DNA of 32,000 nucleotides, taken from Nostoc sp. PCC 7120 = FACHB-418 (GTDB lineage Bacteria > Cyanobacteriota > Cyanobacteriia > Cyanobacteriales > Nostocaceae). The translations under genes and the position numbers were made by a program. Within the stretch, counting starts at the first letter, position 1; every line of letters starts with the position of its first letter. Shown piece by piece: positions 15,561 to 18,470 of this stretch. The notes beneath the pieces are model-generated. The model saw nothing but the letters and a program-made list of their open reading frames with translations, searched no databases and was not told the origin of the DNA. Location: NCBI RefSeq assembly GCF_000009705.1, contig NC_003276.1, forward strand, positions 376,102 to 408,101. The letters run 5' to 3'.

Positions 15561-16421
15561 CTAAACCAAACTCAACTGCTCAACCCGCTCACCCTCCAAA
15601 CACTCAGCCTTGAGCCTAAAGAAGCACACACACCAGCGATCGCCCACCACCCGATCAATCCCATGCGGCTGCTTGTTGTCGAAAGCAATATAATCGCCCT
15701 CCTCCAGGCAGTAAGACTCCATCCGCCGAGTATCCTGACAACCGGAGATAGAGAACTTTGCCTGACCCATGATATTGATTTGCGCTGCCCCTGAAGCATA
15801 AGCTGGTGAATCCCGATGTACTTTGATTTGTGTCCCGGCTGGGTAAAAAAGTATAAGTGCTTGGTGAAAATCAGGCAACAGCTTCTCGCCCAAAGCCTCA
15901 ATCACCTCTGCGCCGGCATAACGCCCCGGCTCAATCACCTTAACCTCAGCCTTCTTCTCCGACTTAGCACTGGCGAGACTAACGAACCGCCGCAGATGCA
16001 ACTCTAGACGACCATCGGCATATTGAGAGACTGAAGGAAACATCTGGTTTTTGATAGACTTGCACCAATCCTGAATTTGTGCCAACTCCTCATCCTCCAA
16101 CTTGCCCAGGCGAGTAATCAGTTCGCTTGATTCGGGTTGTGCGGCAACAGGCTGTGGAACTGCAACATCAGCCGTCGCGTTCTTTCCATCAGCAGCAACC
16201 ATAGGAGTAGCTAACGACGGAACCAGTCGAGGACGATAAAACTCATGCCGCAGTCCCGAAAGCACCCCAAGCACCCCCAACTCTGACCAATCGCCCAAAT
16301 CTTCGCCATGCAGAGACACCCGATAGTAGCCGCAAGTTAGGCGATCGCATACAACAGGAAAACCAGAAGCATGGCATTTGTCTATCAAGCTTAAAACTTT
16401 TGGCGGATAAGTGAGATTCAT
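15561..16421 (-). CDS. AlkB-like 2OG/Fe(II) dioxygenase with a novel N-terminal region
   Basis: The C-terminal core aligns by eye with E. coli AlkB. LILFYPAGTQIKVHRD matches LINRYAPGAKLSLHQD, LEEGDYIAFDNKQPHGI matches LEHGDVVVWGG..YHGI, and RWCVCFFRL matches RYNLTFRQ. The start is taken at ATG 16421, preceded by GGTGGAAAG. The called ORF start at 16553 belongs to the frameshifted DUF488 gene. Confidence 0.75.
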   Translation of the reverse strand: MNLTYPPKVLSLIDKCHASGFPVVCDRLTCGYYRVSLHGEDLGDWSELGVLGVLSGLRHEFYRPRLVPSLATPMVAADGKNATADVAVPQPVAAQPESSELITRLGKLEDEELAQIQDWCKSIKNQMFPSVSQYADGRLELHLRRFVSLASAKSEKKAEVKVIEPGRYAGAEVIEALGEKLLPDFHQALILFYPAGTQIKVHRDSPAYASGAAQINIMGQAKFSISGCQDTRRMESYCLEEGDYIAFDNKQPHGIDRVVGDRWCVCFFRLKAECLEGERVEQLSLV

Positions 16422-16482
16422 CTTTCCACCTTGGATAATTCTCAGTTGTGTCCGAGAAGTTCCAATTTCACCACCCCAAAGC

Positions 16483-16827
16483 TCAGGTAAGTATTTTTGT
16501 ACTACTACTTCTCCAACCTGATATCGATGGCAGAAATCCCCAGTTTTTTTCAAAGCAGCATAGTGTTATGTCTTGTGGGTTGTTCTTCTGTTTCTCCACC
16601 CACAACCCAATCAGCTGCTGCCGAGAATCTAAAATCTCACGGAACTGTCGCTTGTATTCCTGTTCTGCGATCGCATCTTTAGCCGAAGACTTCCACCAGT
16701 ACAACAGTTCAGGAGTAGGAGCGAACAGAGGTAAGTGCTTGCCTGTCCATCCCTTGGGCGGATAAAGCGAAATCGAAACAGCCTCACCCTTGATTTCACC
16801 TTTATAGTATGAGGTATAAATTGTCAC
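16483..16827 (-). CDS. DUF488-like protein, disrupted by a 1-nt frameshift in an A7 run near its 3' end
   Basis: MTIYTSYY...SISLYPP.GW...LAPT.ELL...EYK..F...LCCFEK fits DUF488. The conserved GDFCHR continuation is in the next frame (16422-16553). GTG start at 16827. Confidence 0.65.
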   Translation of the reverse strand: MTIYTSYYKGEIKGEAVSISLYPPKGWTGKHLPLFAPTPELLYWWKSSAKDAIAEQEYKRQFREILDSRQQLIGLWVEKQKNNPQDITLCCFEKNWGFLPSISGWRSSSTKILT

Positions 16828-16828
16828 A

Positions 16829-17323
16829 TCATACCTCCGTTAAATCATGAGGAGTAACCCAGGACAGCCGATTGATAAACTTATTGCCTTGAGATGACCG
16901 AGGAAAAATACAAAGGCCTTCATCAGTTGGTAGTCGTAGGGCTGGCGATCGCCATTCAACCTGATACAACCAAGCATGATTAATGAGCGACATCCCCAGA
17001 ATCATGCGAATCTTTGGGCCATCATTAGCGAATCGAAAGTTCACCAACTGACCTAAACGAAAGTGAGGCTTTTGGATGGACAAGGGCTGAAGTTGCCCGG
17101 AGGCAATGATTTCACTTTCTGGAATAGAGATGATTCCGCGATCGCTGTCGATAGAATAATTCCACCCAGTTTCACTCCACTCGACCCCGCAGCAATAACC
17201 GGCGACTTTAGGAGAGGGTAAATAAACCTTCTCTAGTATGCTGATGGTCAGTGGTGAGAGTTGTTTGCCCCAAGGTGGGGATATATACCAGCACGTTTCC
17301 AGGGCGTAGATTGAGTTAGTCAT
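16829..17323 (-). CDS. hypothetical protein (164 aa from the coupled ATG)
   Basis: ATG 17323-17321 overlaps the methyltransferase TGA (ATGA) and follows GGAGG. No motif is recognised with confidence. It may be a Nostoc-specific DUF. Confidence 0.6.
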   Translation of the reverse strand: MTNSIYALETCWYISPPWGKQLSPLTISILEKVYLPSPKVAGYCCGVEWSETGWNYSIDSDRGIISIPESEIIASGQLQPLSIQKPHFRLGQLVNFRFANDGPKIRMILGMSLINHAWLYQVEWRSPALRLPTDEGLCIFPRSSQGNKFINRLSWVTPHDLTEV

Positions 17324-18081
17324 GATGCCTCCTGATAAGAAAGTAGACTGCATAGATAATCAATGCGTTTCCAAGCAACGGCGGCCTGTCGCGGAGAGCA
17401 ACTCAATCCGTAAGCGCGACGGGCATCATAGTTACCAGGGATATTTTTAGCTACTCCAATGGGAATCCGAGAAGCCACCTTAGAAATTCCGGGTTGATAG
17501 CTTCTTGTTTCGAGAGAGAGCCGAACTTGCGTAATGTGATTTCCAATTTGGTTTGACCAGGGGGCCGGGACGACTTGGTTGAATAAGCCATTGGAGTAGG
17601 CAATGATGAAGATTCGTTTCCTTTGGTGCGGCAAGCCGACTTGTTGTGCAGAGATACAGTTCCATTCGCCCATGTACCCGATGCTGTCAAGGTCACAGAT
17701 GATTTGCTCAAGTCCGCGATAGAGTAAACCTGTGGGGTTCTCGATGAGAGCGATCGCTGGTCTGTCGGATTCAATGATGCGGAACTGTTCAGCCCAGAGT
17801 GCGGATCTGGGGTCATCAAGTCCTTGTCGGTTGCCTGCATTGCTTGTACCCTGGCAAGGCAGACCTCCTGCCACGATATCGAATTGTCCTCTATGGCAGT
17901 GGTAGGTGGTAATGTCTGAGTGAATTGGGGTTTGGGGCTGTTCATGGCGCAGTCGTGATTGAGAGTAGGGTGAGATTTCGACAAATTGTTTGACCTGGAA
18001 TTTATGAGACAGACCCGCCGCAGCGATACCGTGATGGCACAGTCCGCCGATGCCAGAGAATAGAGAGAGGATTGATTTCAT
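17320..18081 (-). CDS. DNA (cytosine-5)-methyltransferase catalytic core (motifs I-VIII), unusually short
   Basis: Motif I LFSGIGGL, motif IV GGLPCQGTS, motif VI ALIENPTGL, motif VIII QRKRIFIIA. No recognisable motif IX/X (GNAV-type) or full target-recognition domain is present in its 253 aa. Confidence 0.8.
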   Translation of the reverse strand: MKSILSLFSGIGGLCHHGIAAAGLSHKFQVKQFVEISPYSQSRLRHEQPQTPIHSDITTYHCHRGQFDIVAGGLPCQGTSNAGNRQGLDDPRSALWAEQFRIIESDRPAIALIENPTGLLYRGLEQIICDLDSIGYMGEWNCISAQQVGLPHQRKRIFIIAYSNGLFNQVVPAPWSNQIGNHITQVRLSLETRSYQPGISKVASRIPIGVAKNIPGNYDARRAYGLSCSPRQAAVAWKRIDYLCSLLSYQEAS

Positions 18082-18470
18082 GCAACTGCCTCCTGAACCA
18101 ATTCATCAGGCACATCGAAAAGTCCCAGTTGTCCAATGTAGGGAATAGGGGTAATTGCGCGTGGATTTGTCAGATGCCAATGGAACTGCTGTGGCATTCC
18201 CCAGCTAGCAGCAGTTTCCGAAAATTGGCAACCAACAACTCTAACGACACCGATAATTTCACCGCGACTGAGGCTGTCTAGCTCTGGTATGGAAACACCG
18301 ATGCTTTGACAAAATTCTTGGGCTTGCAGATATTCTTTTTTAGTGCAACCTTTGGCGGAGTGAATCAGAATATCGCCCCGGTAGTGGATAGCCCAACCTC
18401 GGTTTTCAATGTCTTTATTGGCGTAAATGATGGCCCATGCCCAAGGCTGTCTAACGGTGAGTGCTTTCAT
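18078..18470 (-). CDS. ASCH domain protein
   Basis: LTVRQPWAWAIIYANKDIENRGW..YRGDILIHSA is the classic ASCH/PUA-like N-terminal signature. Its stop overlaps the methyltransferase start (ATGA at 18078-18081). Confidence 0.75.
   Translation of the reverse strand: MKALTVRQPWAWAIIYANKDIENRGWAIHYRGDILIHSAKGCTKKEYLQAQEFCQSIGVSIPELDSLSRGEIIGVVRVVGCQFSETAASWGMPQQFHWHLTNPRAITPIPYIGQLGLFDVPDELVQEAVA

Follow-up and report, generated by a model that had tools for sequence, protein, structure and literature searches.

The 32,000-nt window of Nostoc sp. PCC 7120 = FACHB-418 that was analyzed here (NC_003276.1, 376,102-408,101; positions are window coordinates throughout) carries a minus-strand cassette for an ASCH-domain protein, a short C5 cytosine methyltransferase, a DUF1392 protein and a fusion of a DUF488-N3a domain to an AlkB-like 2-oxoglutarate (2OG)/Fe(II) dioxygenase. 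This cassette is a genuine functional unit of mobile elements, conserved and translationally coupled on plasmids and phages of filamentous cyanobacteria, and it is distinguished by a dioxygenase of an AlkB-like clade that is joined to DUF488, with ASCH and a Tudor-like protein as its partners. It is possible, and is proposed tentatively at somewhat less than even confidence, that the cassette modifies the mobile element's own DNA, by protective cytosine methylation followed by oxidative processing.

A coupled four-gene cassette on Nostocales plasmids and phages

The open reading frames (ORFs) over 15561-18470 are co-directional and tightly packed on the minus strand, with ATGA stop/start overlaps at 18081-18078 and 17323-17320 and a GTG start at 16827 that lies 1 nt beyond the preceding TGA, all as described in an earlier sequence-only reading of this DNA. 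The G+C-rich character that this reading had noted by eye is also found, since the G+C content is 0.47-0.49 over 15501-18500 versus roughly 0.35-0.44 in the immediate flanks; values up to 0.47 also occur elsewhere in the window, outside the cassette. A promoter and terminator scan gave no information on the boundaries of the operon, and PADLOC fitted no defense-system model, returning only generic methylase matches and weak DUF488 matches to two candidate models.

The sequence-only reading had counted five genes in this block, but there are four, as the DUF488 and dioxygenase parts form one ORF of 421-451 amino acids (aa) in every relative. In a megablast search against plasmids, the cassette was detected both on several plasmids of Nostoc and, with 92.5% identity, on plasmid A of Trichormus variabilis ATCC 29413, and in these records the two parts are one 1266-nt gene. 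A three-way DNA alignment with the T. variabilis and NIES-3756 orthologs placed one extra A in the window's fusion gene, in a homopolymer that is A7 in the window and A6 in all eight close relatives that have the run; this difference is why there are two ORFs in the window, with an overlap of 71 nt. The Shine-Dalgarno sequence and ATG that the earlier reading had assigned to a separate dioxygenase gene are present, in that GGTGGAAAG precedes the ATG at 16421, but both lie inside the fused reading frame, where they encode QGGKMN. In addition, the frameshift cuts DUF488 just ahead of its conserved CHR motif, which falls in the other frame as sequenced, and the resulting 114-aa ORF scores 30.7 bits on PF22751 (cutoff 27), as compared to 41-44 bits for repaired or orthologous proteins in which CHR is intact.

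Several comparisons bear on the origin of this extra base. Database protein P0001 (421 aa) is identical to the window's 330-aa ORF at 328 of 330 residues, and the two mismatches are located at the artificial TTG start, adjoining the frameshift. Intact 421-aa fusion genes are present in near-identical contigs; for example, metagenome contig L004 differs from window positions 5796-21136 (15.3 kb) by zero substitutions and two 1-nt indels. The second of these indels, near 10183-10190, is in a homopolymer that is T6 in the window and one base longer in L004, and it splits a 111-aa DUF5674 gene (10024-10358) into ORFs of 76 and 46 aa in the window. The occurrence of two frame-breaking homopolymer indels and no substitutions over 15 kb points to an error of sequencing or assembly in the record from which the window was taken, so the frameshift in the fusion gene is, judging from the sequence, most likely a sequencing error. 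A real slippage mutation in the window copy is possible, and this would be predicted to inactivate DUF488. The idea that the A-run serves for programmed frameshifting or for phase variation was rejected, since the run is not conserved in distant relatives, which have GAGAAA and similar sequences and read through in frame; in addition, the truncated homologs that recur do not share one starting place.

Gene order was compared across ~15 distinct Nostocales loci, and the order ASCH, C5 methyltransferase, DUF1392, fusion gene recurs on Nostocales plasmids. Of 15 loci, 13 have DUF1392 as the gene directly before the fusion gene, the C5 methyltransferase is next upstream in 12 of these 13, and ASCH is upstream again in 11. 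At four loci (L009, L013, L014 and L017) the short methylase is replaced in place by an unrelated, full-length C5 methyltransferase of 395-537 aa that covers positions 6-324 of the 324-position PF00145 profile, and this non-orthologous swap at the same position suggests that C5 methylation itself is required. Fusions of DUF488 with the dioxygenase occur in 6 of 69 dioxygenase family representatives and in both orders, with DUF488 at the N-terminus in P0012, P0061 and P0092 and at the C-terminus in P0042, P0063 and P0065; some of these fusions include an SH3-like domain, and the domain found between the two parts in the Nostocales protein may be present or absent.

Related gene sets are also found in viral DNA. 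IMG/VR contig L033 contains a C5 methyltransferase, a DUF488::dioxygenase fusion and ASCH in that order, with overlapping starts. The L033 methyltransferase (5797-7608) is split over two frames, with motifs I-VIII in ORF 6501-7052 and motifs IX-X in the tail of 5797-7608, which could reflect a frameshift or an assembly error. In Aphanizomenon phage vB_AphaS-CL131 the dioxygenase is gp087, and the overlapping genes for ASCH (gp072) and the methylase (gp071) lie downstream of DnaB; the paper describing this phage is silent on these genes. In three other loci (L023, L028 and L036) a C5 methyltransferase is located 1-5 kb from the dioxygenase, and a scan of viral contigs with the narrower alignment A3 yielded two loci. 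The comparative signal is strong, comprising fusions in both orders, non-orthologous methylase replacement, and gene sets that are shuffled but coupled. Together with the kinds of genes found nearby, these patterns go beyond what common descent of the loci would account for.

The genes that neighbor the cassette across loci encode DnaB, a protein with a DpdA-like tRNA-guanine transglycosylase (TGT) domain plus DUF6884, an N4/N6 methyltransferase, ArdC, the anti-Pycsar protein Apyc1 and PNK3P. On T. variabilis plasmid A (L001), a canonical AlkB (14167-14766; PF13532, E 3e-29) is part of the same co-directional array as the cassette; a second DUF1392 paralog (16770-17228) lies with this AlkB gene upstream of p502 and DnaB. 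In L013, a 629-aa protein (5012-6901) that combines a TGT/DpdA-like domain, DUF6884 and a 'p150' domain is encoded just upstream of p126, the N4/N6 methylase and the C5 methylase in one array, a possible sign that this hotspot also holds genes for DNA modification of the 7-deazaguanine type. The 101-kb phage-like contig L036 has a standalone member of the dioxygenase family near Apyc1, a 656-aa C5 methyltransferase and an EAL-domain protein (543-3283, 7542-8240).

Domains and active sites of the cassette proteins

The family to which the dioxygenase belongs is small. By word index there are only 46 homologs of the full fusion protein, every named one of which is from Nostocales, and a profile of its C-terminal domain has only 69 matches at E<=1e-3 among 1.84 billion representative proteins, most of them standalone proteins of 155-205 aa. 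Residues R41, H105, D107, G145, H156 and R165 (domain numbering) are invariant in an alignment of 51 diverse members; of these, H105, D107 and H156 make up the HxD...H facial (iron) triad and R165 is the 2OG-binding Arg (H337, D339, H388 and R397 in the 421-aa protein). Pfam provides weak matches for this family, most commonly to the AlkB-type PF13532 (14 of 51 members), followed by Cupin_2 and a prolyl 4-hydroxylase (P4H)-type family, and every 2OG-oxygenase match of window ORF 15561-16553 is below threshold. On PF13532, the window protein scores 13.9 bits and the T. variabilis ortholog 19.0 bits, as compared to a gathering threshold of 31.2, which the L033 fusion homolog exceeds at 32.4 bits. 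A sequence-profile search of the PDB with this domain found no meaningful match.

An AlphaFold2 model of this domain, computed from the 51-member alignment (pLDDT 94, pTM 0.88), has ALKBH5, E. coli AlkB, ALKBH6 and ALKBH7 as its best PDB folds in Foldseek (E 3e-9 to 1e-7, TM 0.55-0.68), with a Foldseek probability of 1.0 to AlkB and ALKBH5. These alignments span ~190-205 columns and include the N-terminal strands. The fold is nearest that of AlkB and not that of small-molecule hydroxylases; prolyl hydroxylases, however, are only slightly worse matches, with alignments of almost equal quality. In the viral structure library BFVD, a phage protein with 52% identity ranks first, and most of the next matches are replicase polyproteins of plant viruses, of the AlkB-carrying kind. 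The hhalign profile alignment to the canonical AlkB encoded on T. variabilis plasmid A is weak (probability 18%), and it places HxD, the distal His, R165 and the N-terminal Arg (R41) in register. The sequence-only reading had described a residue-for-residue match to the AlkB core, which holds for HxD, the distal His and the first Arg of the RxxxxxR motif; the second Arg is not conserved, as its position is occupied by F and the neighboring R/K/Y varies across the family. By model fold and core residues, the dioxygenase is a distinct small clade of AlkB-like 2OG/Fe(II) dioxygenases, a placement that stops short of demonstrated membership in the AlkB family.

That reading had also considered a write-then-oxidize module of the phage TET/JBP kind, and it allowed for either an AlkB or a TET/JBP assignment. 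The former is the nearest by structure; the latter is not supported, as there is no TET/JBP structure among the top 50 PDB Foldseek matches and no Tet_JBP Pfam match in the window protein or the 51 family members. Therefore, such a module would need oxidation of 5-methylcytosine (5mC) by an AlkB-like enzyme.

The 253-aa methylase matches PF00145 with 117 bits over profile positions 3-169 of 324 only, and its alignments to M.HaeIII and M.HhaI stop at residue ~173. Motifs I (FSGIGG), IV (GLPCQG), VI (IENP) and VIII (QRKR) are kept, which speaks against a catalytically dead enzyme, and a conserved motif-X-like helix is found at the C-terminus. There is no target recognition domain (TRD) and no motif IX in the ~65 residues between motif VIII and this helix, in agreement with the earlier description of a core-only enzyme; the absence of a TRD suggests that the methylase is probably of low specificity. 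The best PDB sequence match is M.HaeIII (2e-14), and DNMT2 is also matched (E 7e-7). The methylase matches phrog_363 (PHROG 363) over its full length and has relatives in 949 phage records, chiefly of mycobacteriophages and Nodularia phages. Since the whole phrog_363 family shares the core-only build, this is a family trait and not a peculiarity of the Nostoc locus. Across the ~15 loci there is no conserved restriction endonuclease gene next to the cassette, so the methylase is considered an orphan, as had been proposed from the window.

The ASCH protein scores 27.2 bits on PF04266 (cutoff 21.2) and matches phrog_3193 with an E value of 1e-44. It carries the GxKxxExR octapeptide as ANKDIENR, which places it in the ASC-1/TRIP4-like GKER subgroup, and its best PDB sequence match is the ASCH domain of TRIP4/ASC-1 (E 0.002). 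The GKER subgroup was defined in a 2026 preprint, in which its members are described as N4-acetylcytidine (ac4C) amidohydrolases and nucleic-acid binders, and in which 19 of 19 ASCH proteins assayed, including the GKER subgroup, lowered tRNA ac4C (10.64898/2026.02.27.708502).

The 164-aa product that the sequence-only reading had left without an assignment is a member of Pfam DUF1392 (PF07154, E 2e-65, 219.8 bits versus a cutoff of 25, full-length profile). This family comprises at least 157 clusters, and those with a named source are all from Nostocales; a literature search found no paper mentioning DUF1392. An AlphaFold2 model (pLDDT 77) contains two beta-barrels of Tudor/SH3-like type. Its Foldseek matches to Tudor/Agenet domains in tandem are weak, with E values of ~0.01 and no match below 1e-3. 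M.AquI is a precedent for split methylase subunits; however, DUF1392 as a trans-acting TRD or beta subunit of a split methylase was rejected, as it lacks motifs IX and X, is built of beta-barrels and persists beside full-length methylases. Homology of DUF1392 to the C-terminal SH3-like extension of phage dioxygenases was likewise rejected for want of a sequence signal, leaving a functional analogy at most.

The N-terminal domain of the fusion matches PF22751, DUF488-N3a, which is annotated as the 'active DUF488-N3 subclade'. In P0046, a 242-aa protein from outside Nostoc, DUF488-N3a is fused to a SLOG/DprA-like domain (PF10686, PF02481), which suggests nucleotide-ligand or single-stranded DNA contexts for this clade. 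The ~68-aa Cys/His-rich middle domain has no Pfam match, is confined to the Nostocales version of the fusion, and is absent from P0092 and the L033 fusion.

A proposed function and its rivals

If the cassette modifies the mobile element's own DNA, the orphan C5 methyltransferase would write 5mC on element DNA, probably at low specificity, and this mark would blunt the many m5C-sensitive restriction systems of host cyanobacteria. The DUF488-N3a::dioxygenase fusion would then act on methylated cytosines, with the dioxygenase oxidizing the methyl group and the fused DUF488, of the rhodanese/phosphatase superfamily, performing follow-up phospho- or end-processing. Nucleic acid or the modified base may be bound by the PUA-like ASCH protein and by the DUF1392 beta-barrel, whose place is taken in other versions by a fused SH3-like domain. 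This is the most economical reading of a locus whose gene set, fusions, conservation, folds and active-site residues are observed; 5mC in DNA as the substrate, the chemistry of DUF488 and the anti-restriction role are inferred. A more specific form of this proposal, in which the AlkB-like dioxygenase::DUF488 protein turns 5mC from the linked methylase into a new cytosine derivative, or takes part in a write-erase cycle with strand or end processing, and in which ASCH and the Tudor-like protein are readers, is unlikely on present evidence.

Oxidative processing of element DNA is favored by the conserved gene order, the in-place methylase replacement, the fusions in both orders and the rearranged gene sets in phage-like DNA, by the DNA-modification and anti-defense genes in the neighborhood, and by the invariant triad and Arg of the dioxygenase and its high-confidence model. 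The array of T. variabilis also encodes a canonical AlkB, with which the dioxygenase is therefore not redundant. In addition, the AlkB-family protein ALKBH1 is reported to be active on m5C (PMC11260981). The recurring DUF488 fusion and the coexistence with a canonical AlkB favor multi-step processing over direct reversal.

Several considerations weigh against the proposed modification of element DNA. Family members in L015, L022 and L031 have no nearby C5 methyltransferase, and part of the co-occurrence could be background, as C5 methyltransferases are common in phages. No glycosyl-, amino-acyl- or kinase-type hypermodification transferase is conserved in the cassette. AlkB enzymes chiefly remove N-methyl lesions rather than oxidize C5-methyl groups, and the fold here is AlkB-like; in Foldseek, bacterial P4H and PHD2 prolyl hydroxylases score slightly below AlkB-family folds. 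The literature search found no experimental work on the chemistry of the DUF488-N3 clade, or on this cassette variant, and a search on methylomes gave only papers on other cyanobacteria. Finally, decayed copies are present in L016, L018, L019, L021 and the window, suggesting that selection may be weak or episodic.

A different use of the same genes is suggested by what is known of eukaryotic enzymes: DNMTs generate 3-methylcytosine (3mC), and the co-evolution of DNMTs with ALKB2 is known in eukaryotes. The sequence-only reading had accordingly offered as one hypothesis that the AlkB-like dioxygenase repairs 3mC-type damage made by the linked C5 methyltransferase. In the fuller form considered here, the promiscuous, TRD-less methylase would still shield element DNA from restriction, the dioxygenase would remove its 3mC by-products by direct oxidative reversal, and ASCH and DUF488 would be accessory proteins that bind lesions and process ends, by analogy with ASCC-ALKBH3. 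This explanation is somewhat unlikely, though it is the main rival. It draws on the top-ranked folds ALKBH5 and E. coli AlkB, the viral AlkB domains in BFVD, the register of HxD, His, R165 and the N-terminal Arg with canonical AlkB, the L033 homolog above the PF13532 threshold, the match of ASCH to TRIP4 and the described link between ASCC and ALKBH3 (PMC11214414); linkage to any type of C5 methyltransferase fits it too. Yet direct reversal requires no fused phosphatase-like domain or beta-barrel partner, and fusions recur; a canonical AlkB is already encoded in the T. variabilis array, the second Arg of RxxxxxR is not conserved, and the window protein is far under the Pfam AlkB-type threshold (13.9-19 bits versus 31.2). 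A role in general alkylation repair or in RNA/tRNA modification, independent of the neighboring DNA methylase, is improbable. In such a module ASCH would be an N4-acylcytidine amidohydrolase or RNA binder, the dioxygenase would have RNA as its substrate, the substrates of DUF488 would be RNA termini or nucleotide derivatives, and even the methylase might, like DNMT2, modify RNA. The lowering of tRNA ac4C by all 19 ASCH proteins (10.64898/2026.02.27.708502), the reported repair of RNA by viral AlkB domains (PMC2553587), the SLOG/DprA-like fusion in P0046, the recurrence of PNK3P genes near dioxygenase family members and the DNMT2 match of the methylase are consistent with this possibility. However, the best matches of the methylase are DNA enzymes such as M.HaeIII, full-length DNA C5 methyltransferases substitute at the same position, the neighbors are genes for DNA modification and replication (DnaB, DpdA-like, N4/N6 methyltransferase), and translational coupling with the methyltransferase recurs in different gene orders.

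A further alternative concerns the window copy itself, which might be a decaying, non-functional relic with a true pseudogene fusion and a lost native promoter. The ancestral plasmid array has the order p502, DnaB, (p150), p126, ASCH, methylase, DUF1392, fusion gene, (p92, aspartic protease). Of its upstream part the window keeps only a p126 remnant (18477-18653), with DnaB and p502 absent, so this cassette has lost its native upstream genes. The CHR motif taken out of frame, the insertion sequence (IS)/MULE transposase and truncated p581 homolog upstream, the truncated ParE, and decay in 4 of 14 related loci also fit a relic. Nevertheless, this alternative is rather unlikely: a contig that is otherwise identical over 15.3 kb has an intact fusion gene, the sole two differences are 1-nt homopolymer indels that both break ORFs in the window, a pattern typical of sequencing error, and the ASCH, methyltransferase and DUF1392 ORFs are intact.

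If 5mC is oxidized or processed as proposed, AlkB-type enzymes would have been recruited independently of TET/JBP for bacterial DNA base hypermodification, the cassette would define a pathway of DNA hypermodification or demethylation not known before, and DUF488 would have its first assigned chemistry. It would also provide the first function for DUF488-N3 and DUF1392, both of them widespread domains of unknown function, and a further anti-restriction strategy in filamentous cyanobacteria, organisms in which restriction barriers hamper genetic work. If instead the dioxygenase repairs 3mC made by a promiscuous methylase, the relationships of DNMT with ALKB2 and of ASCC with ALKBH3 would have, in this cassette, their first counterpart in prokaryotes.

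The window copy and its relation to known systems

Features of the cassette and its surroundings in the window.
Feature	Position	Strand	Basis or remark
ASCH-domain protein, 130 aa	18078..18470	-	Pfam PF04266
Short orphan C5 cytosine methyltransferase, 253 aa	17320..18081	-	PF00145
DUF1392 protein, 164 aa	16829..17323	-	PF07154; longer ORF reading to 17353 = 174 aa
Ancestral single gene, DUF488-N3a + Cys/His-rich middle domain + AlkB-like dioxygenase	15561..16827	-	421 aa when repaired
DUF488-N3a-bearing ORF as sequenced, 114 aa	16483-16827	-	PF22751, 30.7 bits
Dioxygenase-bearing ORF as sequenced	15561-16553	-	330 aa from TTG, or 286 aa from ATG 16421
A7 homopolymer run with frameshift	16544..16550	-	relatives have A6
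Middle domain, ~68 aa, KCH...C...C motif	16218..16421	-	alignment
AlkB-like 2OG/Fe(II) dioxygenase domain, 189 aa	15564..16130	-	alignment and AlphaFold2 model
p126 gene remnant (aa 68-126)	18477..18653	-	tblastn
Decayed duplicate of fusion-gene 3' end, beside ParD	14268..14377	-	89% over 110 nt
92-aa protein gene and 126-aa retropepsin-like aspartic protease gene	14876..15531	-	weak PF13975 match for protease
Rearranged upstream ORFs (DUF4351, DUF3775, p581 C-terminus, MULE transposase)	18868-19698, 19679-20131, 20156-20932, 20982-22563		

The replication-module side of the window cassette is rearranged by insertions. Genes for DUF4351 and DUF3775 proteins occupy the place of DnaB and p150 in intact arrays, and also upstream are the C-terminal 258 aa of a 581-aa protein (p581, which is intact in L014) and the IS/MULE-type transposase gene.

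On the opposite side, the 92-aa gene and the aspartic protease gene follow the fusion gene in L001, L009, L012 and L018 and not in L002, while L010 has the 92-aa gene only. A sigma-70-like promoter match, TTGAGC-18-TATAAT (10/12; 15583-15554, minus strand), overlaps the stop codon of the fusion gene, and this putative promoter could drive the two downstream genes independently; these genes are probably a separate unit with a promoter of their own.

The decayed second copy of the fusion-gene 3' end that the sequence-only reading had placed nearby is found at 14268-14377, which matches 15594-15703 at 89%. The same remnant is present beside ParD in L001, L002, L004-L006 and L009, and longer ones in L003, L010 and L012, a recurrence that suggests repeated recombination at this boundary. 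The ParD antitoxin gene (14496-14753, plus strand) is followed by a truncated ParE toxin gene at about 14741-14860. In Nostoc NIES-3756 an intact ParE abuts the fusion gene; in the window and in T. variabilis the 92-aa/protease unit lies in between. Further along, a NuiA nuclease-inhibitor gene (12741-13148, plus strand) adjoins a gene for a sugar-non-specific, NucA-type endonuclease (13157-13993, minus strand), and this arrangement and the annotation of relatives match the known Anabaena NucA/NuiA pair.

Comparison of the cassette with described systems reveals partial likeness to each of them. The eukaryotic ASCC-ALKBH3 complex contains an ASCH protein (TRIP4), a 2H phosphoesterase (ASCC1), the helicase ASCC3 and ALKBH3. 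The cassette similarly combines an AlkB-type dioxygenase, a GKER-subgroup ASCH and a phosphoesterase-like domain, with a replicative helicase upstream in intact arrays. However, its phosphoesterase-like domain is of the DUF488/rhodanese-phosphatase type rather than 2H, its helicase is DnaB-type and not Ski2-like, and a C5 methyltransferase is integral to it. The resemblance is a functional one and is not taken as evidence of common descent.

The methylase is like the short phage C5 methyltransferases of PHROG 363 in its full-length match, core-only architecture and conserved C-terminal helix, but it is encoded in a four-gene cassette, whereas the Nodularia phage copy has no such partners nearby. 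The N-terminal domain of the fusion, through its match to PF22751, is like the DUF488-N3 clade of the RapZ-C/DUF488/DUF4326 group in the rhodanese-phosphatase superfamily. This clade was reportedly defined by Burroughs and Aravind in 2023, in work that is said to be the source of Pfam PF22751/PF22752 (DUF488-N3a and N3i) and to have predicted a role for DUF488-N3 in DNA-end processing within nucleic-acid-modifying conflict systems. As the clade was already defined in that study, a prior computational description of the cassette is possible.

The dioxygenase shares with the AlkB/ALKBH family (E. coli AlkB, ALKBH2/3/5 and the AlkB domains of plant viruses) the double-stranded beta-helix fold, HxD...H, the 2OG-binding Arg and its best structural matches, along with an N-terminal Arg that aligns in hhalign and one homolog over the PF13532 threshold. 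In contrast to that family, it constitutes a separate small family (69 representatives) whose window member is sub-threshold for PF13532, its H-to-R spacing is 9 residues rather than 13-17, and the second RxxxxxR Arg is not conserved; in addition, it has DUF488 as a fusion partner, and one plasmid encodes both it and a canonical AlkB. In phage TET/JBP systems, a C5 methylase is linked to a 2OG dioxygenase, and 5mC is converted to 5-hydroxymethylcytosine and then modified further. The cassette is like these systems in pairing an orphan C5 methyltransferase with a 2OG/Fe(II) dioxygenase in the early or anti-restriction gene region of phage and mobile DNA. Unlike them, it has a dioxygenase that is not TET/JBP by Pfam and Foldseek, it has no glycosyltransferase, and in its place are the DUF488 part of the dioxygenase protein, ASCH and a protein of Tudor-like fold.

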